A stretch of DNA of 20,000 nt. Origin: Vairimorpha necatrix (taxonomy: Eukaryota). The notes under the pieces are model-generated. The model did not search any database and was not told the DNA's origin. It worked only from the letters and a program-made list of their open reading frames with translations. The stretch is from positions 1,471,499 to 1,491,498 of the forward strand of contig CP142727.1 in the NCBI GenBank assembly GCA_036630325.1, written 5' to 3'. This document shows, piece by piece, positions 1 to 20,000 of the stretch (positions within the stretch are counted from its first letter, which is position 1; each line of letters opens with the position of its first letter). The position numbers and the translations under genes were made by a program.

Positions 1-2970
1 AATTATATAATCTTAACAATGAAAAATTTATATTTTATGATACTATATTTTTTGAATATTCCAGAGATGAAAATATTTTTCAAATATGGGGTGAATGATC
101 ATTTAAATATAACATTTCTAAAAAATAATTAAATTGATATATTTTTGAATTACACCCCTAATAGATATACTTTTTGTTTTCATATAATTAGACTATCTAA
201 ATCATAGACAATTCAAATAGAGAAGAGAACGATATATAAATAGAAAAGAAAACAAATAAAAAGATTACATATCTAACAATAGTTATAAAACTGTACACTA
301 AATCAAATTTATTGTTCACATTAGAAATTATACCATGGATTAAATAATTGCAGACATAAATTTTGACTGAACCTTTCTGGGATTGATTTGGTTGCAAATT
401 AAATTTTTATAAAAAATGCACATATTTTATTTATGTTCTATAAAAAAAAGTAAAAGGACATTATATTCACATTATAAGTTACTTTAAAAATAATTAGACA
501 AAAAATAAAGTATGCATGAAACAAATTAACTCGTTTCATCCTTATTTCTAATTTCTAAAACCAAATTCCGTACACAATTTTAATTTGGCAGAAAAACAAA
601 TCCCTAGATGAAAGATTATCGAAATGTCATTTCTTACAATAAAAATTTTGATGTTATGTTCAAGCCATTTATAATATTAAAAACGAAAATATATATATGC
701 GAGAAATTAATATTTACAAAATTAAACAAACAATTTCTTTAAAAAACAGTTCAATATTTATTTTAGATGAATCAATAGCTTTCATTCCTCGTATAAAGGA
801 CAAGGATCATATATATCATTATTAAAATAGAAATACTGTCATTATTATTTGTTTGTTCCGTAAATCCGAACCAAATCCTCTATCGTATAACAAAACATAA
901 GGTTACACATTTGATAATCTTTATGAATTTTTAGATTGTAATTTAGTACTGTTTCCTTAATAGAGATGTATTGTTTTTTTTTTAAAATATCAGTTGTTGA
1001 TAAAATTTAGACAAGAAATTAATATGAAAATTACCTTATAAAACAAAGATGAAATACGCTTAATACGTACAATTCATGTCGAATTAATATAATCAACTTG
1101 TTATAAATTAAGAATATTTTGTCAAGCAACATGATTCAATGTATCTGTGTAAAATCAAAAATAAGATAAATTCTTACTCAAAAAATAAATTATATAAAAT
1201 ATAATAATTTGAAATATTTATATTTTTCAATTATTATTTTTAAATGACAAGAAACGTACCTATATTAAAAAGATAATACAAGCGTTAAAATGATGTGAAT
1301 CTAATACACTCTTTAAAAATCAAGACAACTTGCATTTTAGACATAAAACTATGTATGTAGAAATTTTTAAGTTAATAAATATGAATATAAAACTTGCATC
1401 AGCAATATATATAGAGTGGATAAAAAAAATATTAAGTTTAAAACAAAATAACAAACCGTTTTTAATACAATTTTATAATCAATAGTGTAATATAAGAAAA
1501 ATTTACATATAGAGTATAAAATAACTGAAAACTAATGTTCTATATATAAATTAGAGTTGATTATTGTATAAAAAATAATAAGTAATATTGTATAAAGTAG
1601 CTTTTAATAACTATTTTTAAATGTTATATTTTTGTGGTAGACACTGAATATTTAGAACATTTTGAAAATACTTATGAGATATAAAATGAATATCCAGTCC
1701 TTTATCTTTAAGATTAACGTCACTAGAAAAAAACATTGTAACCAAGCCTTTTCCATAATGACTATTAAGATTTACTTTTTTTGAAAATTTTTTTGATCCT
1801 TAAACGACGAAGTGTATTTTGGAAATCATTAAAAAATTTTATGTAAAAATGAGCTTTAAAAAATGAAAAAATAGAACTTTACTATTAATGAACAACTTCA
1901 CTTACAACTAGAAATAAAATTGATGGATACATCGACCGTGTTTTCAAAAAGAGGCCAGGTTTAAAAAAAAACATTACTGATGCAGTGTTTAATGAATTTT
2001 GTTAATATCGAATTAACGTCTAAAGAATTTATCTAGGATCATCTTTTTTTCTTTTATACGATTATATATCCCCATTTTTCAAAATTCGAATAACTGGTAG
2101 TCAAAGAAGTCCGTAGAAAGCAGGATCAAATTTTAGTAATGTTAAATGTCGAGTAAAAGATTTATGTAATGATAAGTGACATTTGTGTAAGTTAATTATG
2201 TACATTATTTTGCAATTTAGAATTTAATTAAAGCTTTGTTTCTCATTAGCAGTGAATCTTGACGATGTAATATAAAGATAGACAAAAACATATGTTCTGA
2301 AACGAAAAAATTACACAATATGTACTTTCTGTAGTTTTTTTTGAGAATTCAAATTGGTATTTATGAATAAACTTCCTACACTAAACGTATGAGAACAAAT
2401 TCATTGTTAACAAAATTCTATGTAATGGTTCTCTCTTATCTTACATGGAAAAAAAATAAAAATTAGGAAGAGTGTAATTTTATGAGAAAAGAAGAGAATG
2501 TCTAGAAATATTATTTTATGAAGGATCATTAACATTTACGAAAATTTTAAAACAATCGAAAAGCGAAATTTATCAGATAAGAAATTTAGCATATAATAAA
2601 ATTTGAAAGTTTGGGCATACGGTAATTGATTGCAATTACATATCTGTCATATAAAGTATATATTGACACTGATTCAGACAAAGTTTAAAATTAGCTTTGA
2701 AAGTCTTTATTAGTTAACATTCAACTTTAGATAATATATTAGTAATAAATAGATAGCAAATTATCATATAAACTGTTTACAGTTATAATTAAGATGAATC
2801 AGTAGAACAAAATATTTCAAATGTAAAGTTATAAATGATTAGAACATTATATAAATACCAAATTAAAGACTGTCATTCTATTATAATGAATAATTTTAAT
2901 GAGTGTAATAAATAAAAATATCATAAAAACGAATATATGATAAAAATTTTTATAAATAAATAAGAATGAT

Positions 2971-2976
<6 letters not shown>

Positions 2977-3006
<30 letters not shown>
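2977..3006. repeat. (AT)15 microsatellite
   Basis: Perfect AT dinucleotide run, ending ~30 bp before the Merlin element. Confidence 0.95.
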
Positions 3007-3009
<3 letters not shown>

Positions 3010-3037
3010 TAAAAATCTAGATTTAGTATAAAAAAAT

Positions 3038-3091
3038 GGTACATGACCGTTTGTCACCCGCTTTGGGAAAATGAACCCGCATTGAAAAATT
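3038..3091 (+). repeat. Merlin TIR (downstream of transposase)
   Basis: GGTACATGACCGTTTGTCACCCGCTTTGGGAAAATGAACCCGCATTGAAAAATT is the reverse complement of 4130-4183 at 52/54 positions. ACCCGC occurs twice inside it. Confidence 0.95.
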
Positions 3092-3132
3092 CAAAAAAAG
3101 GGAAAAATAAAAAAAATTATAAAAAAAGAGAC

Positions 3133-4106
3133 TTAACGATTTATTTTGAATAATGAAAGAAGTCGATTAATTCTTTGGTTTTTTGCTATTTGATAAGACC
3201 ATAGAAACTGTAAAAGATACTCATAGTGCTCGTCCTGGTTTATTCCATGTATAGACCGAATATCTCTCTTCGAAAGAGACCAAAATCCTTCAATTTGTTG
3301 AGTAAGTGTCTCGGGATCGTTAGGATTTACAAAATTGATAGAGTGATTGACAGTCCTATGCTCCATCCCTGTGATTTGTCTAAATGCAGCACCATATGCT
3401 CTCCATTGATCAGTGATCACAATATAACCAGGCAATACATTATCTTGTATTAACTTAAGAAGCGTAGCAATATTTCTACTAGCTACAGGGACGAGAAAGG
3501 CCTTTCTAGAACCTCTTTCAACTCCTCCTACATACCACTGACCTGTGGTATGATTGCCACGATTATATTTGGCACGAAAGAATAGACTCTCGTCGATCTC
3601 CACTACTTTAGGAATGCCTAACTCATCACGACCTCCTAACCTCTGGCTATTATTGGTCACTTCCTCGATTATGCGATCTCTGCAGAGCATACCATATGTA
3701 CTTACGGTTTTTCTGTCTAGCTCAAGATCATTTGCTATATCGAGAAAGGAAACTCTTTTGATATACTTATATATCATTCTTATAATTTTATAAAAACTTA
3801 ATTTGGTATTTTCAAAAATAGAGTCTTTTCTGACAGATTTAGAAGTAGTACAAGGTTTCGTGAATTCCAAACATATTTGTCTAATAATCTTATTCTTCTA
3901 ATCAATTTCATTGGCCTTTCAGAGCTGCATACAGTACAAAAAAAGTTGTTTTGTATTAATGAACTGCGTGCCAGAAACATACACGCTGTCTCAGCATCAT
4001 AAAATGTTTCCAAAATAAAATTTTCATTTATTTCCATGTTTAAAAACATTTCATCACTTAAAAGCTCATCTTCTATAACAAAATTTGTTTTTGTCAATCT
4101 TGCCAT
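3133..4106 (-). pseudogene. Merlin/ISXO2-like DDE transposase split by a 1-nt frameshift at ~3862 (ORFs 3798-4106 and 3133-3870)
   Basis: N-terminal part has CTVC...KYVW. C-terminal part has KPC..SVRKDSIF, an HTH-like IANDLELDRKTVS, and catalytic motifs VEIDES / ITDQWRAY / VNHS.NFV / QIEGFWS. Adding one base (TGG AAT T[G]C ACG AAA CCT TGT) joins them into a 324-aa protein. Confidence 0.9.
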
Positions 4107-4123
4107 TTTTTGAAAGGGGGGGG
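4107..4123 (-). promoter_or_regulatory. C-run (CCC-like motif) just upstream of the transposase ATG
   Basis: Minus strand reads CCCCCCCCTTTCAAAAA-ATG. CCC/GGG-like motifs close to the start codon are an established signal of microsporidian genes. Confidence 0.5.
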
Positions 4124-4129
4124 TCCTTT

Positions 4130-4183
4130 AATTTTTCAATGCGGGTTCATTTTCCCAAAGCGGGTTCCAAACGGTCATGTACC
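4130..4183 (-). repeat. Merlin TIR (upstream of transposase)
   Basis: Reverse complement reads GGTACATGACCGTTTGGAACCCGCTTTGGGAAAATGAACCCGCATTGAAAAATT. Confidence 0.95.
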
Positions 4184-4568
4184 AAAAAAATATATTTAGA
4201 AAAAACATGTTGGCCATGTAAAAGAAGGTGAGTAGTAATTTGGTTGTCGGTAATGAATTTTGATTTTTTTTTATTAAGATAATTAAAACAACGGATTATA
4301 TTACAATAAATACTAAATGAAGGATAAATCATCAGATCAAGCCTTGTAGAATTCTAGTATTTTTTATCGATGTAAGGTTCATATTAATCTTGTCTATTAT
4401 ATTTAATGAACCTAATCTTTTTGTAATATTTAATTTATATATTTTGGGATCTGAAATTATCTTCATTTAAGGAAAATATTTAAAAAAAATATTTTAAATA
4501 TATTATGATTAAACAAAAATGATATATTAAAAATTTAAATAAGATAACTTATAGAGTATAATAAAAAG

Positions 4569-4584
4569 ATATATATATATATAT
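4569..4584. repeat. (AT)8 microsatellite at the 5' flank of the non-LTR fragment
   Basis: Direct reading of the sequence. Confidence 0.8.
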
Positions 4585-4707
4585 TTGAAAAAATGAGGGT
4601 AAGGACAGAGCAGGAGGAAGAAACCGAAAAAATTACAAAACAAACCTCTATAGCAAACATAGACAAAGTAGACACAGAAGAGAAAGAACAGGGGCCAGAA
4701 CACACTA

Positions 4708-5523
4708 GTGTGCCCACTCATCTTCTGTGGACAAGAGGGACAATGTCCCCATTGTGGATCTCATAGGAAGACCGTGGATCATTTAGCTACCAAGTGTGAT
4801 CGAATGTTGGGTTTTGATTATATGAAAAGACACAACGAGGTAGTTAGATGCATTCATCTCTTACTATGTATTAAATATGGGTTTAAGAAGACAAAGAAAA
4901 TACGTGGACACTCAGTACAAGAGATCATGGAAAATGATCGTGCAGAAATAAGAGTAGATACGAGAATATCCACTAATATAAAGGTAACCCATAATAAGCC
5001 TGATATTCTTGTGTTTGACAAGAAGAAGAAAGAAATTTTAATAGTTGAAGTTGGTATAACCAACCAGGATCGACTTACTATAGTTGAGAATGAAAAACTA
5101 AGAAAATATGACCTTCTTGCAAATGAACTGGGACTAATACATAAATCCCGGACAAGAATAGTTCCTTATGTAATGACATGGGATGGAGTGGTGACCAAAT
5201 ATCACAGAAAGTACATCAGGGAGCTAGAAATCCAACCCTACCTGGAAGCATATATCCAGTCTATTGTGATGAAGAAGACTCTAGAGTCCATCTCTTTGGA
5301 ACGACGACGAGGATACGATCAGGAGGATGCAGGAGAAGAAGAAGTGGCTAGAGCTGTAAGCGCACTAGCGAATATGGCGACTGTTAAAGAAGTGGTGTCG
5401 GCAAAGGGGAATGAAGCTGCTAAAGTGAAGTTGGAAAACATTAATAATTCCACAGAAACCAAAGTCTGTGAAGAGCTGAATCCCATGAGCGATACCGGGG
5501 AAAGCTGTGCTATGAATATCTAA
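4708..5523 (+). pseudogene. C-terminal part of a non-LTR retrotransposon ORF: CCHC zinc finger plus restriction-like PD-(D/E)xK endonuclease (R2/R4-Dong-like); RT domain absent
   Basis: CPHC-x7-HLATKC zinc finger, RHN motif, KPDI...VEVGI endonuclease motif and KLRKY..LA.EL. The frame is open for 271 codons but has no RT motifs upstream. Confidence 0.88.
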
Positions 5524-5650
5524 ACATAATTGAAAATTAACTCAATAAATCTTTTATTTTATATTTGAATAAAAAAATAATCTAATAGTAATATTGTTGT
5601 GTTATATAATATAAAAAATAGGTTAAACTATCAAATACTCTAAGAATTTA

Positions 5651-5866
5651 ATAGCGTACATCAAGATGATTAACAGAAGACAAACTAAAGCATTCCAATA
5701 GACTACAAAAGAGGTGTGAAGGTTCCGATTTAAAAAGGACTAAGAGCCGTGAAGCTGCCTACAAACAGGAGATGCTAATGCGGAACCTATTAAGAATATA
5801 CTAGAATATAAAACACCATTAGCATATCCCGTATTAATTCATTTTTATTAGAATAATAATAATAAT
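5651..5866 (+). mobile_element. Degenerate extreme 3' end of a second, related RLE non-LTR retrotransposon, with a structured 3' region and (AAT)5 tail
   Basis: Translation IAYIKMI /frameshift/ QKTN*SIPIDYKRG aligns by eye with EAYIQSIVMKKTLESISLERRRG of the neighbouring ORF. (AAT)5 lies at 5852-5866. Confidence 0.55.
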
Positions 5867-5970
5867 TATGTTTTATATATTTATAAAGATTATTTATATA
5901 TATTATAACAATGGTATTTATTATGTTATTTTCTGGAATAAACTATATTTTTCCATATTAAATATGAATT

Positions 5971-6256
5971 TGTGGTATTATTTACCACATTATTATATTT
6001 TCCTCCAAATGAATTTTCTAGAATTTATTTTTATATAAATATTTTCTTTTTATTTTTACCCCCACCAAAATATGTCAAGAAGAACAGAGGAGTCTAGAAA
6101 TCAGCAGTATCAATCACTGCATCCCCAGAAAAGGGAAGATAAAGCCCAAGGAGGCAGATTTAATAATACAACTTTAATTATAATAAAACTTTAATACCCG
6201 TCAGAAGCATTATAGAATGCTATCTGAGGAACGGCCAACTCCCGGGTAATACCTCA
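5971..6256 (+). repeat. 5' LTR of the gag-only element
   Basis: TG...CA ends with a 9/10 terminal inverted repeat. Contains TATAAAT (6034-6040), a C-run (6059-6063) and an ATG (6072). Confidence 0.92.
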
Positions 6257-6371
6257 ATGAGCTCATTAGTATTAGAAAAAAGTAATAATACTGAGAAATA
6301 AAATGATGATGAAGCATATACCACATTTGATAAAACCATAGAAGGAACTACAATAGTGTTTAAAGAAAAAA

Positions 6372-7025
6372 TTGAAAAATGTAAAACGTGACTGCACCAT
6401 AAATCATCTCGAGCTGTTTGAAGAGCTAGGAACGGCCAATAAATGGACAAATGAGCAGATGGGACTCATCTACCATTCTTTGATTGAAGATTCTAAGGTG
6501 AAAGATAAGCTAAATAAGAAAAGCTTTAAAAAACAAAAAAAAGAACTACTAGAATTCAGATATCCAAAAAATGATGTAGCTTTATTATTAACAGAGATGG
6601 AAACTGTAAAACAGGTAAATTATAGAAGTATAGCAGATTACTTCGAGAAAATAAAGTCGATGATTAAAATATACGGACTATCTATAAACCTATCGAAAAA
6701 GGAATCTGATGTTAGATTGAAACAGATTTTTGAAAAAGGATTAGGCAGATCAACTGCCATTGAAGTTTTAAAATCAGGAATGAAAAACAAGGTAATGGAC
6801 GAGCTATTAAAATATTCACAGGATCTGGAAGAAATGATTATTTTACAGGTGAAACTGGAAGGGAGACTTTATCTCAATTTATATCTAAGAAAGAGAATTA
6901 TGAAAGACCTGAAGAAACAGGAAGATACTTTAAAAGTGATAAGTGGTGCTCTATACATCGAGCAAGATCACATGATACACGAGATTGTCGTCTACAAAAA
7001 CCAAAAGCCAACGATAGAGAAATAA
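6372..7025 (+). pseudogene. Gag (capsid plus nucleocapsid) remnant, frameshifted
   Basis: HLELFEELGTANKWTNEQ resembles the retrotransposon gag FE...N.W motif, and KQIFEKGL resembles the gag F..GL motif. Another frame at 6944-6988 reads WCSIHRARSHDTRDC, a C-x2-H-x4-H-x4-C zinc knuckle variant. Confidence 0.8.
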
Positions 7026-7657
7026 AAAAAGAAGGAAAATCGTTAATGATAAAAAAAATTCCTAACGATGAATTGGATAAAAAAATAAAAAAACCGACTG
7101 CCTATTAATTCAGAAACAAAAAGAAAATAAAATCATCAATAAACAGAAATGTATAAATGAAAGAATAAATAATATAGATAATTGTATTAAAAGGAATTTG
7201 AATAAAAAATAGACAATCTTCTAGCTAAAGTCTTAACTAATATAGTTGACTTTGTGAAAAGGACAGGGAATACGATACCATCAGATGATATATATTCAAA
7301 AATATTAAAATAAATAACAAAGGAAGAAGCAAGCCTCCTGATAAAATTAAAGATAACCATCAACAGGTAAAAGATTTGGCAACATCTAAATATGATAGTT
7401 ATCAGAATAAAAAAAAAATCTTGGAACTTTCAGAAAACATTGCCTCAAAAATAAAATGCAGCAGATGCAATTTAGCATATGTAGATATGGAGTAAAGGGC
7501 GAATCTGAGAAGCTCAAATGTGATAAGTTAAACTCATACCTTGATTCGAGGTTTAGAATATCCAACCCAGCTATTTCTTAGAAACGGCGAAAAGAACTAT
7601 TTGATGATTTCGGAGGAATCCGTATTCTAATTTGCTGATTTTTTGCAGGAGGTAGTA

Positions 7658-7943
7658 TGTGGTATTATTTGCCACATTATTATATTTTCCCTCCAAATGA
7701 ATTTTTAGAATTTATTTTTCTATAAATATTTTCTTTTTATTTTTACCCCCACCAAAATATGTCAATAAGAACAGAGGAGTCTAGAAATAAGCAGTATCAA
7801 TCAATGCATCCTTAGAAGAGGAAAGATAAAGCCCAAGGAGGCAGATTTAATAATACAACTTGCATTATAATAAAACTTTAATACCCGGGAGAAGCATTAT
7901 AGAATGCTATCTGAGGAATGGCCAACTCCCGGGTAATACCTAA
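7658..7943 (+). repeat. 3' LTR of the gag-only element
   Basis: Copy of 5971-6256. The terminal CA reads AA, followed directly by the GAATT TSD. Confidence 0.92.
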
Positions 7944-8002
7944 GAATTAAACATAAAAACAAGAAATAAATATATGACAAATTAATAATTTTTTTTTCTT
8001 TA

Positions 8003-8380
8003 GGGAGTATCTACACATCTTATATCCGGCATGAAGCCTGATCCGAAGTTGAAGTGATGAGTCTAAATTTACATATTGATTTATATTATTTGTTTGTTTT
8101 GCTGCTCATCGGAATTGTAGGTCAGGGGTAAATTCCGTTTAAATAGTCAATCAGATTAACTGTCAAACTCTTTGAGATGTAATCAAACAAACATGAAACC
8201 GAAGTTCTACTGAATTAGTAGTACTTCATGTGACATGCACTTGTCTTACTTTTAGTTTGTGAATGTCAAACATGTCTAATGTTTATTTACAATACTCTTA
8301 GACGTTTGACAGTACCAATAATCATTGTATAATTATAAACAAGATTCGTCAGTGCAGGTCTGCAGCCTCACACATCTGAA
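8003..8380. other. GC-richer, hairpin-dense non-coding island (possible PIF/Harbinger-type transposon end or structured RNA)
   Basis: Several inverted repeats, three TGTCAAAC motifs (one inverted), no ORF. Begins TTA|GGGAGTATCTACAC. Confidence 0.4.
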
Positions 8381-11300
8381 GAAAATATTAATATTGTTAT
8401 TTTGAAAATTATTTCTTGCACTATTTAGTACATTTTTTTAGAGGTTGCCAACGTATGTATCTGTATAATTAATATTTTAAGAAATTTAGATTTATTTGTC
8501 TTTTCATATGAGTACGTAAGTATATAATTTGCTGTATATAAAATAATTATGAAACGCATTATGTGCAGAATCGACATAAAAATAAAAAATTGAAGTAAAG
8601 TTAAACATATTAATTCGGCTTTGGACAAATACGTTAATTAAACGCAATATTTACTTCTTTTTGCAAGGTAAAAACATATTTTTCAAAACAAGTAAATTAG
8701 ATTCTTTCAAAAAGAAATTAAAACACAATCATTGAGTGATTTAATTACAAGAAATGTCTGACACTATATAACAATCATTTAAGACATATAATTTAGTCTA
8801 ACAATATATTTGTTGAAAGAATTAGGACATATTTATATACAAGAAATAAGATTATAAATCTATTTAAAATAATTTATGTATATGCATTATAGCATTTAAA
8901 TAAATGTTAAAAAACGAAAACTTGATAAACTAAACACAAAGGTTCATGAAAGTGTGTATTAACGATTACATCATAAGAACATTTGTCAGAGTTTACATTC
9001 AAATATTCACCAACCACGTTTCAACACACCAATAATACAACAAAAAACAAAAAATTCAATATGTTTATCCATGCAAAATAATTAACCTATAACTTACGTG
9101 GCTAAAAAATAATTACAATAAAAATAGAATTTTAATAAGAAGTTTGTATATGAAGGGCAAAGAATATTTATGAAGCAAGTACACAATCATAAAGTTATTA
9201 ATAGCGAAATATTTTTAGCCTTCTTACTTAAAAGTAGCAAAGTTTTATCTATGAAAAACAGAAAATAAAGAAAAAATAAGAACGAGCATATTGGTTGAAA
9301 GAAAAAATATCTTTTAAAATTTAAACGAACTCTACAATCTATCTAAATTTACAACATAGGCAATAACAAGATAATTTAAATTTGTTTTTTCCTTTTTTCA
9401 TTTGGTATAAGTACAACAAAAGAATGGAATTACTTACGATCAAAAATAGCACTGTTTTAGAAGGGATACAAATAATAAAAATTTATTATAACTAGATAGT
9501 AGAGGGATTATAAAGATAAACATATGATTCATACATATTGCTTTGCAAGATAAATACATAAGAATTCAAACTAAAGATATACGATCAAGATATTAATTGA
9601 AATGTAATTTTCTTTTATATTAAAATCTACGCCAAGATAAACAAAAATAAATCCCAATATTGCATATAGTATTATTTAAGTACAATTAAAACAAATAGAT
9701 TAGTTTTTTAATTATCTGAAACATATCAGACGATTTTGTAAATGAAAATTATACTGAAAAATCAACTATATAATATTTATATTTGATAAATATGTACACG
9801 TTATTAAGTATAATAATTACTAATGGTAAAAAACGAAAACAAATATTATATAAAAATTTTAAACGAATTTTGATTAACCTCGTATATTACATTTTTTGAT
9901 TTATAGAATTCTAAAGAAGTTTCAGTTATGAAACATTGTAGACTTTTGGAATCGAAGTTGGTAAAAAACAAATGTCACAAATATTAATTTGTTGTTTACA
10001 ATCATATTGACCACACAAAATTTGAAATTATGACCAAAAAATTCTAAAAAGTAAAATCATCAATACTAGTATTATAATTATAAAAATATATTATTTTATT
10101 ATTAATTTCAAATAAATAAGAACAAATCAATTCAAAATTCTCTCGGTTAAATATTTGATAATCGCTCTTTTGTTATATATAATACTTTATAAATCCGTTA
10201 AGTATAATATTTTTATATAATAATTAGATAAAAATTTAGGTATGAAGATCGAAATATTATAAAAAGAGTTTTTTGACGAAAGAAAAAAAAATTTAAAATT
10301 CAATCAACAATTATCGTAAAATTATATAATCATTAGAAAATCATTTATTTAATTATAATTAGAAGAATTGATGAAAATTATTTAAATTAACAATATAAAA
10401 TAAAACCTATTCATTGTAAAATCGTTCAGCAACAGTAAAAAGAATTTTACTTAGAAACGACATTTATGTAATTGATTTTAAAAATCCTAGGGAACCCCTA
10501 CTTAAATATATTTTCCATATTATAATATAATAAGAAATAATAAGTTTATTTTCAATTATGAATAATTAAATAAAAACAATAGCTCATACAATTTAATATA
10601 AGGTTGACGTAAAATGGGTTCGAGATTTTGAAAAAGGCGTCGCATATCTCAAAAAAATAAAACAAAAATAATGAGGGGAGTAGAATAGAAATGCATATAA
10701 ATCCAATACATTTAATACAAAAAAAAAATTAATTATGAAATGCTATATTTATTAAAAAATCTTTTATGCCATAGTTACACGCTAACGGAATATAATTTTC
10801 AATATTTATATATTTAAGCAGAAAATAATTTAAAGTAAGATAAAGAGTAATAACATAATATAAAATGATTAACACTTGCTTAATTTAAATTAAAAAACTT
10901 ATAAAAACACGTTAATTTAGAATAAGTATTTCTTAACTATAATACTATATAATATTTCACCTGGACGTTTTCAAGATTATTTACAAAAAAATAAAAAAAT
11001 TCGAAAAGTTTGAATTGCATATATTAAATATTAACAATATGATAATACTTCGGGAAAACAAATAAGAATCTTAGAAAAAACACCTAAATAATATTTATAT
11101 ATCGTTAGTTTGAGAAATTTACAAGTATTCTTAAGAAATTAAATTTTTAGAATATATAAGAATTCATTTACACATATTTAAATAAAAACAAAAAATTTAT
11201 ATTATTTAGCATAAAAATGAAATATTATTAGTTAAAAGAAAAACTTAAAAATTCCTCTTATAAAATAAAAAATTTTGTTCTTTGTCTTATAATTATCAGA

Positions 11301-14246
11301 TATTTAAATTTTTTGAATCAAAAATTTTATATAACTGTTATAGTCAATATTTTTGAAGAAAAATTGAAATTTAATTTTGATATTATATATTGTATAGTTC
11401 AATAAAATGCGTTAGATTAATTCTAAGTATGAAAAGGTCAAGAAAAGTTATACTTCAATATAAATTTTTAATACACAAAGATTGACCTACAAGTAAAATA
11501 AAATAATGCCAATAAAAATCTTTGAAAAAACTAATATATTTCGAAATGCAATTTCAATAATGATATTTGAGGTTAATATTACAAAAATAATTAAAAAAAA
11601 ATATATTTAAAGTAGTAGGATAACTTTTTTTAAAAAAAAACGTATTGGACTAAAACTCGTTTTGAAAATTAATGTTAATATCTAGAATAGTTATAAAAAA
11701 TATTCAAACTAAACGTTAAAAAAAATTCTAGATAAGTGAAAAGAAGAAAATTTTTATACAATTAAATTTTTACGACTTTTGAAGCGCGAAGTCTCAACCA
11801 CTATAACGAAAATAATATTTTTTGATCATTAAATATAATTTTATATTTTCAAATTTCGCTCATAATAATACACATACGACTGATTAGTATAAGTAATAGT
11901 TTTAGAACATATAACGACTTTATCTTTTTTTAAAAATAATGTATCAATCGAAAATTTAAAATGCAATATATTACACCTAGATATTAAACATGATGATATA
12001 TACAACCTACACGAGAAACATATGATTCAATAACGAAAAATTTATAAAAATACTAAAAATAATCTATTAAAAATTTTTATATATTTGTATTTCAAAAGAA
12101 ACCATATCACGGAGGGTTTTAGAAAATTGTAGATTAAAAATATTAAATTACAATCATTATTTCATAAAGTTTTAAAAATGATTTAAATTATTCTTATGGT
12201 AAAACATTAAATACTATTTATCGCAAGGAAGCATTAAAAAGTTCTTTATATCTAAAAACTCATTTTTTTATGCTTAACTTAAGTTTTTAAAATTATTATA
12301 AAAATGTAGCTTATATAAACCAAATAATATCAAGAAAATTCATAAATAAAAATTTAAAGTCTCAAAGAAACATAAAGACATACGACGAAAATAAAATATA
12401 AACATATATAGAGGAACACAACAAACGACATTTCATTCTGTTATCATTTATTACAACAGTATTTTGAAATTTTTGGTTATAGACTGTAAAAAAATTATAA
12501 AATATCAAAACAAAAAATTATTTCAATGAAAATAATGATAAATAATTAAGAAATAAATCTAATAATGGTCAGAAAACATATTAAATACATTTCAAATGAT
12601 AAGATAATCAACATTTATACAAATTGTAAATTTATACACAAAAGTAGGCTGGAAATAAATTTCGTATTTCTTCATTTGAATTTTTCTAGTAAACATCATA
12701 TATTCCACGTATTTATTATTAATACTATAATTATGATAAAATTAAAACAAAACAAATACAGAATTGGTAAATTTATTAACAAATATTTTACACTAACCGA
12801 AGAATTAAAAAAATATAAATCAATAAGAGCTTGAAGGGTTAATAAAAAGTATAAACAAACCCCAATGCAACTAATTAATAGATATTTATATAAATTTAAG
12901 AAAAATTTAATGTAAGAACATATAAATTAAAAAACAAATCTTATCTTTAAAAATGACAGAAAATATTTTAATGCATTACCCCGATTACATTATAAATATA
13001 GATGCAGTAGACGAATTCTAATAATTATAAAATTTAATTTAATTTAAATATTAATTGATTAAAAAAATATAATAATATATTGATAAATTAAATTCCAAAT
13101 ATGAAAACAAAAAAATCTTTATGAATTTTTTTGGAATAAACATTTTGATTTTTAAAGAATGAAATCAATCTAATGATTTAATAAAAAAATTAAAATTTTT
13201 TAATAATACATGAATACTTTTATTCATAAAAAATAACATTTTAACATAACACATTATGTAAAACATTTTTATAGATAATAATAGGTTACTTTTAAACTAT
13301 TCGCAATTTTTTACGCAAAAATTTAACAATTTTAACTGGTTATAAAATATATCAAACTAGTTCTCTTCATAATTGAAATTATATGAAGATCAAGCATGAA
13401 GTAAATCTTACGGTTATAAAAGAAAATTTATAAGTACAAACAAAACATATCCTGGGCATTATGATCACATATCAAATATATTTTTTATAGGATGTATTTT
13501 TCAATTATCCAATAACTTCACTCCCTCTTTTTTTTAAAATATTATATTTTCTACCATAAAAAAATTAATCCCAAAGAGAACATAAATAATAAACACAATA
13601 ACATTTGTAATATTAAAAGACTTTTTGGACAGTTCAAATACATAGATAAATAGAATTGTACATTAGAAGAAGCCTCATCCTATGCAGCAGCCAAGTAGAT
13701 ATAAATATTCATAAAAAATTCAAAAGAACAAATTTTTGCGAAAATATTTTATTTTATAAAAATTAATTAAATCATATTAATCTGATAAATCTTAAGTACT
13801 TCTATTGATCTATTTTAATATAACATAATTTTATACTGAAATATACAAATGTAATTAGTTATAAGTATTGTATTTTCAAACAAACACTGGAATCTTTCCT
13901 TAATGTTAACAAATTGTTACGTCCTTTTACTTTCTATCAATAATGATCAAATTTTTTTATTCAAAGTGATTATCATAAGCTTTCCTAAAGAGTATAAGCT
14001 TTTGTGTCTGTATATATGCGTTAATACAGCATTCGAGATTTAAGTTATTTGTATAATTCCCTAAAATATTTTTTTTTAGTATAATACGAATATTTCCAGT
14101 AAGAAATATGTTAAAACACAAAAATGACTTTTTTTTACAATGAAATATATTACAAATTAAAGAAGTAATTTCATACTTTTACAATATATTATTACATAAA
14201 TTTATTCGCAAAATTACACCAAAAATACTTTGTGTTTTAATTATAA

Positions 14247-14284
14247 TGTTAAAGTTGAACCTTTTATTAAATAAATGTATAACA
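14247..14284 (+). repeat. 5' LTR (38 bp)
   Basis: TGTTAAAGTTGAACCTTTTATTAAATAAATGTATAACA. Confidence 0.88.
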
Positions 14285-14810
14285 TGGCAAACACAAAAGA
14301 CGAAAGGGTAACAAGTGAGACCTGTGTTTAAGAGAAGATAAAATTACTAAAAGAAACTCAGAGAGTAGAAGCAATCATCAGAATGCAGAAAGAAAAAGAT
14401 GAGACAACGAAGCAGTCGATAAAACAAGTAAATTCTGAGCTTCAGGATTTTATTATTGATAAAAATTTAATCATTATGATTAATTGGAATAATATTATTG
14501 ATGAAATTGATAAATTAGTTATTGAAGAGGAAGAGAATAAGAACAAGGAAAAAATAAGGAGTAGAGAACTAGAAGATATGGTAGAGGGTATGAAGGAAAA
14601 ATTAAAAAGAAGATGAAAGGATAACTGACTAGGACTGTAGCAGTGTCAGGAAGATACTTTCAATATCAAAGACGAGAAGAAAAACATTGGTTTATATGTG
14701 GGAGAATTATACATATAGCTAGAGGTTGTATGGAGCGTAAAGGAAGACAGGAAGAGAATAATGAAAATAAAAGTGTTAAATATTTTGGCATTTGTGGAAA
14801 AGTAAAATGA
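14284..14810 (+). pseudogene. Short gag-like remnant with degenerate zinc knuckle(s)
   Basis: The ATG overlaps the LTR end, followed by a charged coiled-coil-like ORF at 14383-14616. 14688-14729 reads WFICGRIIHIARGC, a decayed Cx2Cx4Hx4C. A second GICGK follows. Confidence 0.6.
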
Positions 14811-15043
14811 AAATATTAAAAATGAAATGATTTTAAATTGAGACTACCAGTGGAGGTAAAAAGAGAGAACTCAAGAAACAGTTTTTATGTAAAAAATACA
14901 AACCAAGATAAAAGAAGAAAAAATATTAATAAATATGAAGAATTAGAAGGAAAATTTTCGAGGTATTGTGAAAAGACAGAGGGAAAAGAAAATACTTAAC
15001 AGGGATAAAATGTTCTTTTAAAACAAAACAATGAGTAAAAGTA

Positions 15044-17330
15044 GTGCAAAAGAAACAAAATATTCCTTATAAACTCCGAGAAAAGGCAGAAAAGTATATT
15101 AATTTATTAGAAAGTAGAGGTATTATCAGAAAGACAAAGAGCAAATGGAAAAGCCTAATAAAGCCCATAGAAAAACCAAATGGTAAAGTACAATTGAGAA
15201 GCAATTTGATGGCTTATAATGAACTGGAATAAAAAGATCCGTATGATTTGCCATTGATTAGAGACATATTAAAGCAACGCAAGGTTCTAAAGTATTTATG
15301 GTTATAGACCTAAAGGAAAGATTCTATCATATAGAAATTGAGAGAGCTTACAAACATAAGACAGCTTTTAAGATAAATGGTAGAGTTTACGAATGGAATG
15401 GCATGGTAAAGGGATTAAAAAATGCTCCCCATATTATGCAAAGAGTGATGAACGGAGTTTTAGATAAGTTTAGAGGCAAGAGTGTTGAGGTGTACATGGA
15501 TTTTATTATTTATGCATGAGATAGTAATATACAAGAAAATTTTTTAAAACAAGTAATTCGAAAATTTAATGAATGTGGATTAAAAGTAAACTCAAGAAAG
15601 ATACAATATAAATTAGGAGAAGAAAAACTACTTGGAGTAACAATTAACTGAGAAGACATTAAACCGAAAAAATATATAGGAGTAGACATTAGAATACAGA
15701 AAGCCTAACAACATAAAAGATCTTAGAAGAGTTGAGGAGCGGGCAGGCCGGTTAAGAGATTTTATTCATCATTATGCTTATCGGTCAGCGCTTCTTACAA
15801 GAGCACTAAAAAAAGATAGTAAATGAAAATGGTCCCAAGATATGGAAAGAGCTTTTATGGATATCAAAGAGGATTTAAAGGATGTGAAAAAATTAAAAAT
15901 AGAAGATAGATAAAAAAATATTTAGAGTAAGAACGTGTGCATGCGATAAGGGAATTGGAGTTATACTTCTGCAAGAAGACAAGGAAGATAGGTAGATTCT
16001 GATACAATGGGCATCAAAAATGCTAACACCAACAGCTAAAAAGTATACGATTAGTGAAAAAGAGATGTTGGCAGTGTTATTTGAAATAAAGAAATTCGAG
16101 TCAGATTTGGGGGAAGAAAATTTCAATAAATGACAAATCATAAAGGAATGGCCGAGATTAGAAACAAACCGTTTTTTAATAATTACATAATTAAGAGATG
16201 GATAGAATATATACAAGAGTTCGATTTTACTATTGAATATGTAAAAACAGAATTGATGATGTATGTGGATGCTCTTAGTAGACAATTTAAAAATAACGAA
16301 GTAATTGAAAAGGCGAAAGAGATAAACGCACCAAAAACAAATTAAATGGAAAGAAAAAAAGCGCATGGTTAAAAGAGAAGGCAAAAACTATTGGAAGTTC
16401 TCAACAATAGAAATTATTAAATACAACACAAAAAAATAAATGAGAACAGAAATTCGCAGAGTTCATGAGGAATTAAATCATCGTGAAGTGAAAAAGACCT
16501 TATTATAAGGAAAAACAAAGATTGTACTGACCAGCTATTTGACCAGATATCCACAACGCTAAAAAATTGTGGAATATAGTGCATTAATAACAGAAAAACG
16601 ACTGGAGGTTGCAATTTTGTAACTATATTTAAGAAATTAGAAAAAGTAGCTTTACACGTAATTGTTATCGAGGAAAACAAAAAATACCTGCTATTAGGGA
16701 TTGACTACTTAGAAGAAAAGTATAGGGCGCAAAAATGGAAAATAGAGGAAGTGATGTTAATACGAAAATTTTAGGATATTTGATAAATGAAGATGGATGC
16801 CCAGATGAATATTTCGGATAACGGTAAGAAATTTCTCAGTGAGAAGTTTGTAACTTGGTGTAAAGAAAACGGAATTATGCAATGGAAAGTAGGTTTAGAA
16901 GCTCATAAGAGCAATGGAAAATTGAACGATGTATTTGAACAATAAGGGAATCATTGATTAAATAAAAAGAAGGAAACCCAGAGTAAAAACTAGAACAAGC
17001 TAAGAACCTATTATAACATTTTACACACAGCGATAAAATGTACACCAATGGAAGCATGTAAAGAACAAGGAAAAGAAGTCTTTATTGAAAACGTTAAAAA
17101 GGGTGTGTATGCAAGTAATTTTAAACAAAGGAAAGAGATAAAATTTGAAGTAGATCAGGCTGTGAGAATCGCAAGATAAAAAACTTGGGTAAACAGATGA
17201 AATGTATGAAAGGAAGTTTTACAAGTGTTGGTAAAATGATGGGAAAGTGTGAGAATGATTTTTATATTGTAAGGACTGATAGCTGAAAATACCTTAAGAA
17301 ACGACATTATGACCTAAAAGATTATAAAAA
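15044..17330 (+). pseudogene. pol pseudogene: reverse transcriptase, RNase H and integrase, with many stops and frameshifts
   Basis: RT: GIIRKTKSKW, KPNGKVQL, VIDLKERFYHI, KHKTAF, GLKNAPHIMQR, VYMD. RNase H: GIGVILLQ, WASKMLT..KKYTISEKEMLAV, RWIEYIQEFDFTIEY, VDALSR. Integrase: VHEELNHR, LLGIDY, SDNGKKF, SNGKIER, HTAIKCTPMEA. Confidence 0.92.
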
Positions 17331-17368
17331 TGATAAATTAGAAGCTTGTAACGTAGAACTACCCGTTT

Positions 17369-17377
17369 GGAGGGGGA
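17369..17377 (+). other. Polypurine tract
   Basis: GGAGGGGGA directly abuts the TG of the 3' LTR. Confidence 0.85.
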
Positions 17378-17416
17378 TGTTAGGGTTGAACTTTCCTATT
17401 AAATAAATGTATAACA
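17378..17416 (+). repeat. 3' LTR (39 bp)
   Basis: TGTTAGGGTTGAACTTTCCTATTAAATAAATGTATAACA; contains AATAAA. Confidence 0.88.
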
Positions 17417-17578
17417 TATAATCATTAATCTGAAAAAAAAATACTTGAATTAATAGATATTTAGTTAAAATTTATCTAAAAATTTTCATTTTTTATTTAT
17501 TTTAGTTACATATTGATGTAACTGAATTTTTTTTTTAAAAAAAAGATTCAGGAAGGTTTGAGGGCTAAAAGCTGACGT

Positions 17579-20000
17579 GTTAGGTAGGTTAGGTAGGTTA
17601 GGTAGGTAGGTGGGTGGGGGGTGTGGTGGTTAGGGTAGGTAGGTGGTTAGGTAGGTAGGGTGGGGTAGGTAGGTTAGGTAGGTAGGTTAGGTAGGTGGTT
17701 AGGTAGGTAGGGTGGGGTAGGTAGGTTAGGTAGGTAGGTTAGGTAGGTAGGTTAGGTAGGTAGGTTAGGTAGGTTAGGTTAGGTAGGTTAGGTAGGTAGG
17801 TAGGTAGGTTAGGTAGGTAGGTGGTTAGGTTAGGTAGGTGGTTAGGTAGGTTAGGTAGGGTAGGTTAGGTTAGGTTAGGTTAGGTAGGTTAGGTAGGTAG
17901 GTTAGGTTAGGTTAGGTTAGGTAGGTTAGGTTAGGTTAGGTAGGGTAGGTAGGGTTAGGTAGGGTTAGGTAGGTAGGGTAGGTAGGTTAGGTAGGGTAGG
18001 TAGGTAGGTTAGGTAGGGTAGGGTAGGTAGGTTAGGTTAGGTTAGGTAGGTAGGTTAGGTAGGGTGGTAGGTAGGGTAGGGTAGGTGGGTAGGTTAGGTA
18101 GGGTTAGGTAGGGTTAGGTGGTGGTTAGGTAGGGTAGGTAGGTAGGTGGTGGTGGTTTAGGTTAGGTTAGGTAGGGTAGGTAGGTAGGGTAGGGTGGGGT
18201 AGGTAGGTAGGTAGGGTAGGTAGGTTAGGTGGTTAGGTAGGGTAGGTAGGGTAGGTAGGGTAGGTAGTAGGTTAGTAGGTTAGGTTAGGTTAGGTAGTAG
18301 GTTAGGTTAGGTAGGTAGGTTAGGTAGGTAGGTAGGTTAGGTAGGTTAGTTAGTAGGTTAGGTAGGTTTAGGTTTAGGTAGGTTAGGTTAGGTTAGGTTA
18401 GGTAGTAGGTTAGGTAGGTATGGTAGGTAGGTAGGTTAGGTAGGTTAGAGGTTAGGTTTAGGTAGGTAGGTTAGGTAGGTAGGTTAGGTAGGTTAGGTAG
18501 GTAGGTTAGGTTAGGTTAGGTTAGGTAGGTGTTTAGGTTAGGTAGGTAGTTAGGTAGGTTAGGTAGGTTAGGTTAGGTAGGTAGGTAGGTAGGGTAGGTT
18601 AGTAGGTTTAGGTTAGTAGGTTAGGTAGGTTAGGTAGGTAGGTTAGGTAGGTAGGTAGGTAGGTTAGGTAGGTAGGTTAGGTAGGTTTAGGTAGGTTAGT
18701 AGGTTAGGTTAGGTTAGGTAGGTAGGTTAGGTAGGTTAGGTAGGTAGGTTAGGTAGGTAGGTAGGTTAGGGTTTAGGTTAGGTAGGTTAGGTAGGTTAGG
18801 TAGGTGGTTAGGTTAGGTAGGTTAGGTAGGTTAGGTTAGGTTAGGTAGGTTAGGTAGGTTAGGTAGGTTAGGTAGGTTAGGTTAGGTAGGTTAGGTTAGG
18901 TAGGTTAGGTAGGTAGGTAGGTAGGTTAGGTAGGTTAGGTAGGTTAGGTTAGGTAGGTAGGTAGGTAGGTTAGGTTAGGTTAGGTAGGTTAGGTAGGTAG
19001 GTAGGTTAGGTAGGTTAGGTAGGTTAGGTTAGGTAGTAGGTTAGGTTAGGTTAGGTAGGTTAGGTAGGTTAGGTTAGGTAGGTAGGTTAGGTAGGTTAGG
19101 TAGGTTAGGTAGGTTAGGTAGGTTAGGTAGGTTAGGTAGGTAGGTAGGTAGGTTAGGTAGGTTAGGTTAGGTAGGTTAGGTAGGTAGTAGGTTAGGTTAG
19201 GTAGGTTAGGTAGGTAGGTTAGGTAGGTTAGGTAGGTAGGTAGGTTAGGTAGGTAGGTTAGGTAGGTTAGGTAGGTAGGTTAGGTAGGTAGGTTAGGTAG
19301 GTAGGTAGGTTAGGTAGGTAGGTTAGGTAGGTTAGGTAGGTTAGGTAGGTTAGGTAGGTTAGGTTAGGTTAGGTAGGTAGGTTAGGTAGGTTAGGTAGGT
19401 AGGTAGGTAGGTTAGGTTAGGTAGGTTAGGTAGGTTAGGTAGGTTAGGTAGGTTAGGTAGGTTAGGTAGGTAGGTAGGTTAGGTTAGGTAGGTTAGGTTA
19501 GGTAGGTTAGGTAGGTTAGGTAGGTTAGGTAGGTAGGTTAGGTTAGGTTAGGTAGGTTAGGTAGGTTAGGTAGGTAGGTAGGTTAGGTAGGTTAGGTTAG
19601 GTAGGTTAGGTAGGTTAGGTAGGTAGGTAGGTTAGGTAGGTAGGTTAGGTAGGTTAGGTAGGTAGGTAGGTAGGTTAGGTAGGTTAGGTTAGGTAGGTTA
19701 GGTAGGTTAGGTAGGTTAGGTAGGTTAGGTTAGGTAGGTTAGGTAGGTTAGGTTAGGTAGGTTAGGTAGGTAGGTTAGGTAGGTTAGGTAGGTTAGGTAG
19801 GTTAGGTTAGGTAGGTAGGTTAGGTAGGTTAGGTTAGGTTAGGTAGGTTAGGTAGGTAGGTTAGGTAGGTAGGTAGGTAGGTAGGTAGGTAGGTAGGTTA
19901 GGTAGGTAGGTAGGTTAGGTAGGTAGGTAGGTTAGGTAGGTAGGTAGGTAGGTAGGTAGGTTAGGTAGGTTAGGTAGGTTAGGTAGGTTAGGTAGGTTAG
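17579..20000 (+). repeat. Telomeric array, T(1-2)AGG: irregular mix of TTAGG and TAGG
   Basis: A G-rich, C-free strand runs 5'->3' to the window end. Variant units (TAGGG, TGG, TAG, TTTAGG) are concentrated proximally and the distal part is almost purely TTAGG/TAGG. Confidence 0.95.

Follow-up and report, generated by a model that had tools for sequence, protein, structure and literature searches.

A 20,000-nucleotide stretch of Vairimorpha necatrix DNA (contig CP142727.1, positions 1,471,499 to 1,491,498; hereafter "the window", in whose own coordinates positions are given) carries a Ty3/gypsy retrotransposon of 3,170 bp (14247-17416) that is bounded by direct repeats of only 38 and 39 bp. 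These boundaries very probably mark the genuine long terminal repeats (LTRs) of a microsporidian-type element. A bolder reading goes further: the 38-bp repeat would be a complete and functional LTR, the shortest of any protein-coding LTR retrotransposon, belonging to a lineage that transposes or once transposed. A host-type mini-promoter, start, stop, poly(A) signal and integrase ends would overlap within 38 bases, with an R region of about 10-20 nt, a U5 near zero and no protease of the element's own. We give this reading as a whole about an even chance (roughly 0.5). That short LTRs are a trait of the element's lineage is supported by the related elements described below.

Boundaries of the element

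An earlier note on this DNA had drawn the boundaries from four signals, and all four are in place. Both repeats run from TGTTA to TAACA, TGG (14285-14287) lies directly 3' of the 5' LTR, the polypurine tract (PPT) GGAGGGGGA (17369-17377) adjoins the 3' LTR, and TATAA flanks the whole as a target-site duplication (TSD). Terminal repeats with TG...CA ends, a TSD of 4-6 bp and a PPT next to the 3' LTR are all expected of Ty3/gypsy elements. What departs from expectation is length: such an LTR would usually hold U3, R and U5 in some 100 bp or more, and the two measured here span 38 and 39 bp, as the earlier note had claimed. The two copies are identical at 34 of 39 aligned columns and differ by four substitutions and one 1-nt indel. 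One additional A is shared just before both copies; TG is taken as the true LTR start because a boundary shifted to this A would destroy the TSD.

The surrounding region is very A/T-rich, and numerous direct repeats, 16-41 nt long and 67-94% identical, arise in it by chance (families D4-D20), which raises the question of whether the pair is itself a chance A/T-rich repeat beside a decayed pol fragment. However, the LTR pair is the only match of the element against the whole window (blastn, 87.8% over 41 columns, E 2e-7), and it exactly brackets the first and last residues of the polyprotein. It also comes with the TG..CA ends, PPT, TGG and TSD, and is homologous to the LTR of a related contig, L009. 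The 20-nt LTR core, allowing up to three mismatches, occurs exactly twice in the window, where 0.09 occurrences are expected and 2 of 200 shuffles reached two. We give a chance origin almost no weight.

The coding sequence fits these limits closely. Residue 1 of the related protein P0001 aligns at 14284, the last base of the 5' LTR, so the gag ATG (14284-14286) overlaps the terminal CA of the LTR, as the earlier note had described. At the other end, residue 910 of the 911 in P0002 aligns within the 3' LTR (17385). The element therefore contains almost no non-coding sequence: its reading frame opens within the 5' LTR and closes within the 3' LTR.

Identity and relatives

The assignment to Ty3/gypsy, also made in the earlier note, is upheld by Pfam searches, in which RVT_1 is followed by RT_RNaseH, and by tblastn alignments to full-length relatives that span gag through integrase. 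The relatives themselves show RVT_1, RT_RNaseH, Integrase_H2C2 and rve in order, which is the reverse transcriptase (RT), RNase H, integrase arrangement expected of pol in this group. The homology search returned 12 proteins at E <= 0.001 among 634 candidates. The best matches, given with their RT identity, came from Nosema granulosis (P0001, a 'Pol polyprotein', 59%), from a record filed as a Clostridium metagenome-assembled genome (MAG; protein P0002, 59%) and from Vairimorpha necatrix (P0010, a reverse transcriptase, 48%). The best named matches are thus from microsporidia, namely N. granulosis and V. necatrix. Several further matching proteins of about 1,020 aa lie on contigs of 3.1-3.2 kb. 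P0001, P0010 and P0002, the last encoded on L009, share the N-terminus M-A-N-T with the window element.

Parisot et al. 2014 (PMC4202319) name a single polyprotein open reading frame (ORF) as a feature that distinguishes the microsporidia-specific gypsy groups. The relatives found here have this organisation, with single frames of 1,018-1,043 aa that run from the CCHC motif through integrase, and the pieces in the window align colinearly to them. A scan of a viral contig collection found no relative of the element.

The family is multi-copy. Related pieces at 80-100% likeness to the element numbered 314 in one sequencing run (X1), 181 in a second (X2) and 18 in a third; all three runs consist of contigs only and are informative on copy number and decay, not on LTR boundaries. 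One joint in X1 (14238>17533) was considered as an empty site and rejected: it skips 3,294 positions (side 35, one contig) against the roughly 3,175 expected from the TSD, and it is A/T-rich.

Short terminal repeats in related elements

The closest relative with readable DNA is L009, a 3,024-nt contig filed under the Clostridium MAG, whose 5' end is missing. Its 3' LTR is 38 bp long, runs from TGTTG to TAACA after ...ACTACCCGTCTGGAGGAGGGGA, and is identical to the window's 3' LTR at 29 of 39 columns. L009 and the window also have the same PPT, and similar tracts occur in L003, L018 and L022. They differ in their state: the P0002 frame on L009 is intact, with 911 aa that are open from the start of the contig, and the copy in the window is dead.

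In total, 12 loci were examined for LTRs: three have both, two have contig-end overlaps only (30 and 76 nt), and seven are truncated contigs that are uninformative. The three with both are gypsy contigs that share a bin with L009. In L014 (element 3,364 bp) the LTRs are a perfect 58-bp pair that encloses an ORF of 1,095 aa, in L022 (element 3,590 bp) a perfect 75-bp pair that encloses one of 1,154 aa, and in L018 (element 3,957 bp) they measure 176 and 172 bp. L011 has a 47-bp 5' LTR followed by TGGCAAC, and L003, which lacks its 5' part, has a 3' LTR whose end can be placed after 30 or 49 bp. TGG directly follows the 5' LTR in the window and in all four relatives with a 5' LTR (L011, L014, L018 and L022), and in L014, L018 and L022 the ATG straddles the junction between ...CA and TGG.

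These relatives bear on the possibility that 38 bp is not the state of the family at all, and that an element with ordinary LTRs suffered matching deletions or a rearrangement. A single two-ended copy of the exact family was seen, and it is heavily decayed, as such an accident would allow. Yet an identical 5-bp TSD, the PPT and the TGG directly adjoin the short repeats, and the homologous 3' LTR of L009 has the same length. Past the terminal CA, L009 and the window are 45% identical over 40 nt, near the background of 33 +/- 7% (8% of background windows are equally high), so homology does not extend beyond the 39-bp repeats. The relatives also lack LTRs of normal length: the 3' LTR of L009 measures 38 bp, the perfect pairs of L014 and L022 58 and 75 bp, and the LTRs of the published Anncaliia algerae element Aalg retro L 50 bp. 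We consider a one-off origin very improbable. Two claims of the earlier note stand on this evidence, namely that the element integrated with short LTRs and that it represents a miniaturised-LTR lineage, short LTRs of 38 to 75 bp being common to its relatives.

L001 and L002 end before the 3' LTR and provide no usable element end. In both, an RNase H fragment (polyprotein residues 560-647) is fused in frame before the gag start with no LTR between (L001 50-310, L002 1092-1352), which reflects either a rearranged copy or an assembly chimera.

The bacterial MAG records G001 (source of L009, filed under Clostridium) and G002 (source of L011, filed under Turicibacter) gave 44 and 15 gypsy polyprotein matches, several of which carry an intact ORF 1,100-1,300 aa long. 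Contigs of eukaryotic retrotransposons have here been binned with bacterial genomes.

Contents of the LTR and a proposed mechanism

Every LTR examined contains AATAAA, which ends 9-16 nt before the LTR end in six of eight distinct LTRs. Both window LTRs and that of L009 have it 9 nt from the end; for L022 the distance is 10 nt, for L018 it is 16 nt, and for L011 and L014 it is 25-26 nt; in L003 it is 10 or 29 nt, depending on where the LTR end is placed. The earlier note's description of an LTR that holds the integrase ends and an AATAAA thus applies to both window copies. Most LTRs examined also contain an in-frame ATG. In L022 and L003, this ATG is immediately preceded by ACCC, and an A/T run comes before the ACCC. 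In L009, CCCC lies ten bases ahead of the in-LTR ATG, and the window copies are T-rich at the same spot.

Host genes provide a useful comparison. For Encephalitozoon cuniculi and other microsporidia, passages in Peyretaillade et al. 2009 (PMC2803860) describe 5' untranslated regions (UTRs) of less than 7 nt, AAUAAA poly(A) signals, frequent transcriptional overrun, and a CCC-like start context with an AAATTT-like signal. The ACCC before the ATG in the LTRs of L022 and L003 matches this start context and signal, together with the short 5' UTRs and the AAUAAA signals. A section of Panek et al. 2014 (PMC4072689) reports a transposable-element Pol polyprotein detected in A. algerae, whose start codon has a GGG motif in front of it. 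A host-type promoter could fit into half an LTR because 5' UTRs are shorter than 7 nt and promoter signals lie within about 20-30 nt of the ATG. The earlier note had called for an unusual promoter or strand-transfer solution; this may go too far, given how small the promoters of the host itself are.

Based on these features, the LTR may be a minimal U3-R-U5 unit made of TGTTA and TAACA as the integrase ends, a short G/C patch (CCCC in L009, which would have decayed to T here) and the A/T block TATTAAATAAAT, which would act as both promoter-proximal signal and poly(A) signal. U3 would span about 18-23 nt and include the integrase end and the G/C patch, with transcription predicted to start at about LTR positions 19-28, before the in-LTR ATG. 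AAUAAA would place cleavage some 9 nt downstream, on or close to the terminal CA, leaving an R of about 10-20 nt that contains AAUAAA and a U5 near zero. The minus strand would be primed at TGG and the plus strand at GGAGGGGGA, and the 5-bp duplication would be the work of integrase. This subdivision is offered tentatively, at rather less than even odds.

The main rival to an internal U3-R-U5 split is that the element, with its real mini-LTRs, is copied from read-through RNAs that start in the upstream flank and run past the 3' LTR, such that the whole 38-bp LTR serves as the strand-transfer repeat. Little space is left in 38 bp for a promoter plus R, and with AATAAA only 9 nt from the LTR end, cleavage could well fall in the flank. 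Transcription overrun and transcripts that span neighbouring genes are described for E. cuniculi in parts of the same study (PMC2803860). However, the host-like start contexts in the relatives' LTRs (ACCC before the in-LTR ATG in L022 and L003) suggest an internal promoter, and dependence on flanking promoters would silence most new insertions, yet the family is multi-copy. Copying from read-through RNAs appears improbable.

Several observations weigh against this account of the element, its short LTRs and their proposed mechanism. Among the relatives examined, no further member of the 38-bp family was found to have both its LTRs, L009 being without its 5' end; searches of G001 and G002 for the 5' LTR of the L009 family returned the known 3' LTR only, plus one probable chance match. 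None of the three relatives with both LTRs (L014, L018 and L022) has matching 5-bp flanks; their flanks may be chimeras that assembly made from multi-copy elements. Neither a CCC run nor an exact AAATTT occurs in the LTRs of the window itself. An R of 10-20 nt with a U5 near zero would be at or below the shortest known in retroviruses. After the LTR, sequence is conserved among relatives as TGG(C) only, and these bases double as the first codons. Finally, no protease family was found at E <= 1 in profile searches of four close relatives (P0003, P0004, P0006 and P0012; 1,018-1,043 aa), which leaves the autonomy of the close family uncertain.

Other possible priming arrangements were also considered. 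The window contains no tRNA gene. Pairing of the 5' leader with the conserved block before the PPT was no better than in shuffled sequences in any of four elements (0.15-0.91 of shuffles were as stable or more so). Self-priming of the Tf1 type was rejected, the post-LTR sequence showing no complementarity to the LTR when compared by eye, without a formal test.

The block before the PPT, ACTACCCGT(C/T)T..GG, is present in the window, in L009 (2704-2723) and in L003 (about 3197-3221). Its nucleotides are conserved across these three, whose proteins are only about 50-60% identical. On L003 the HYDLK frame meets a stop ahead of it, and it is also not reached by P0003, P0004 and P0006. The block may therefore act in cis, for example as a longer PPT or as another point of primer contact, and not code for protein.

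Protease and autonomy

An aspartic protease between gag and RT is expected of Ty3/gypsy elements. It was not detected in the close relatives, and the window copy is too decayed for a direct test. This raises the possibility that the family is non-autonomous and relies on longer, protease-bearing gypsy families or on host proteases, with the short LTR as part of the same reduction. The absence of a match at E <= 1 in all four close relatives fits such a dependence, as do the mere 55 or so residues between the zinc knuckle and the RT lead-in of P0006. L014 and L018, which are longer and more distant, show weak, sub-threshold aspartyl-protease matches at the expected place. However, these are profile searches, which a divergent or very small protease could escape, and HMMER filters drop weak matches; the polyprotein might also function unprocessed. 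Non-autonomy is a possibility, though an unlikely one, and it fits alongside the main account given above, with which it does not compete.

Short-LTR elements in print

The design is already in print: LTRs of 45-50 bp were tabulated without comment in a 2014 supplement, and the window element adds a new member. In Table S1 of Parisot et al. 2014 (PMC4202319), the A. algerae element Aalg retro L is listed as complete, with an LTR of 50 bp, an ORF at 32-3049 and a total of 3,127 bp, and Aalg retro S is listed with 45-bp LTRs. Among the 50 complete LTR-retrotransposon consensuses of that table, four have LTRs below 100 bp (45, 50, 73 and 90) and the others have LTRs of 105-272 bp; LTRs of 50 bp or less occur in two of the 50. 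A row of Table S2 appears to place retro L in all three A. algerae assemblies. Nowhere does the main text take up LTR length, its one use of 'short' being on a different matter, and a protease is not mentioned.

Aalg retro L, a Ty3/gypsy element of the microsporidia-specific groups, closely resembles the window element. Its length is similar (3,127 versus 3,170 bp), and its single polyprotein ORF also begins within the 5' LTR, at position 32. A comparison by eye of the 5' end, which covers the first ~60 bases of retro L, shows the same succession of TGTTA, ATTAAATAAAT, TAACA and then TGGC. The two differ in LTR length (50 versus 38-39 bp), with the extra length of retro L lying between the AATAAA block and the terminal CA, and in host species.

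Outside microsporidia, passages in Gao et al. 2012 (PMC3281118) present two Oryza brachyantha elements as exceptionally short in this respect, namely FRetro129 (SMART), with 85-bp LTRs, and FRetro64, with LTRs of 76 and 90 bp. According to the same passages, the minimum LTR length of LTR-Finder was lowered to 50 bp to detect them. As described there, both share exceptionally short LTRs, TG..CA ends and a 5-bp TSD with the window element; unlike it, they are Ty1/copia-related plant elements with LTRs about twice as long, and FRetro129 is non-coding. At the level of titles and abstracts, we found no discussion of LTRs below 76 bp in coding elements.

Canonical Ty3/gypsy elements (Metaviridae, e.g. 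Ty3) share with the window element the RT-RNase H-integrase order, a CCHC gag, TG..CA ends, the PPT, the TGG and a 5-bp TSD. In contrast, the LTRs in the window are several-fold below the usual hundred to thousands of bp, and a fused gag-pol ORF overlaps both of them. The close family of the window element further differs from canonical elements in having no detectable protease.

If an LTR can indeed work with 38 bases, the minimum sizes usually assigned to promoter, R and U5 in LTR retrotransposons fail in microsporidia, and the family would be a natural minimal system for how short a first-strand-transfer repeat can be. Of particular mechanistic interest are the positions of transcript start and end in a 38-bp LTR and the minimum length of R. 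There is also a practical consequence. Such elements escape LTR finders whose minimum LTR length is set well above 38 bp, and retrotransposons are therefore likely under-annotated in microsporidian genomes and in contaminated bacterial MAGs.

Coding region and decay of the window copy

The copy in the window is full-length in extent and long dead, with at least four frame changes and dozens of stops; it is a relic without function of its own. Its features are listed in Table 1. A colinear tblastn series of P0001 and P0002 against the window follows the polyprotein from end to end, with the frame order 1>3>2>1>2>1 along the element and 0-22 stops per aligned piece. The three forward frames of the ~3.1 kb of purine-rich sequence between the repeats contain 72, 79 and 105 stops, many of which fall where relatives carry W, Q or G. 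An alternative genetic code was ruled out as their source, all three kinds of stop being present in every frame, along with frame shifts.

Table 1. Features of the Ty3/gypsy element in window coordinates
Feature	Position	Strand	Remarks
5' target-site duplication, TATAA	14242-14246	+	same 5-mer at 17417-17421
5' LTR, 38 bp, TGTTA...TAACA	14247-14284	+	ATTAAA/AATAAA at LTR positions 20-29; another in-frame ATG at LTR position 29
Decayed single gag-pol reading frame, from LTR-straddling ATG to TAA within 3' LTR	14284-17406	+	tblastn to P0001, P0002
Putative primer-binding site, begins TGG(C)	14285-14302	+	TGG adjoins 5' LTR; doubles as first gag codons (M-A-N-T)
Gag zinc-knuckle region, damaged	14658-14756	+	first Cys of C-X2-C-X4-H-X4-C replaced; aligned to P0001 residues 108-152
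Reverse transcriptase	15253-15645	+	Pfam RVT_1 E 2e-21, frame 0; YMDD box degraded to YM-DF
RNase H	15912-16124	+	Pfam RT_RNaseH E 3.4e-14 (different frame from RVT_1), RT_RNaseH_2 E 2.6e-12
Integrase region (zinc-binding part and DDE core), approximate limits	16450-17176	+	tblastn to P0002 up to residue 843
Conserved block ACTACCCGT.TGGAG, then polypurine tract GGAGGGGGA	17358-17377	+	nucleotide-level conservation in window, L009, L003
3' LTR, 39 bp, TGTTA...TAACA	17378-17416	+	contains last 9 codons and stop; stop TAA of AATAAA at 17404-17406
3' target-site duplication, TATAA	17417-17421	+	

Pfam searches of the window copy were run on translations with stops as X, and rve gave no match at E <= 0.01 in this decayed translation. 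The zinc knuckle damaged here is found as zf-CCHC in all four close relatives. The coding strand of 14242-17421 is strongly purine-rich (GC skew +0.3 to +0.45), and at many sites (e.g. 14356, 14491, 15037, 15272 and 16084) an A in the window stands against a G in related contigs, a pattern consistent with G-to-A / C-to-T decay.

Surroundings in the window

The window is very A/T-rich, with about 18-31% G+C outside its last 2.4 kb. These last 2.4 kb (17579-20000, up to the window end) form a telomere-like, G-rich array of irregular TTAGG/TAGG units, for which TRF gave periods of 4, 9 and 13 with about 83% matches. The TSD of the element ends 157 bp before this array.

Other mobile DNA is also present. 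An ORF on the reverse strand (3133-3777) encodes an ISXO2-like / IS1595 DDE transposase domain (Pfam E 8.7e-13), which identifies a Merlin-type DNA transposon; the neighbouring ORF on the same strand (3798-4106) has no Pfam match. Two forward-strand ORFs at 4804-5523 (239 aa) and 6459-7025 (188 aa) match no Pfam family at E <= 0.01. Both lie in a somewhat G+C-richer stretch at about 3000-8500 and may be further mobile-element genes.

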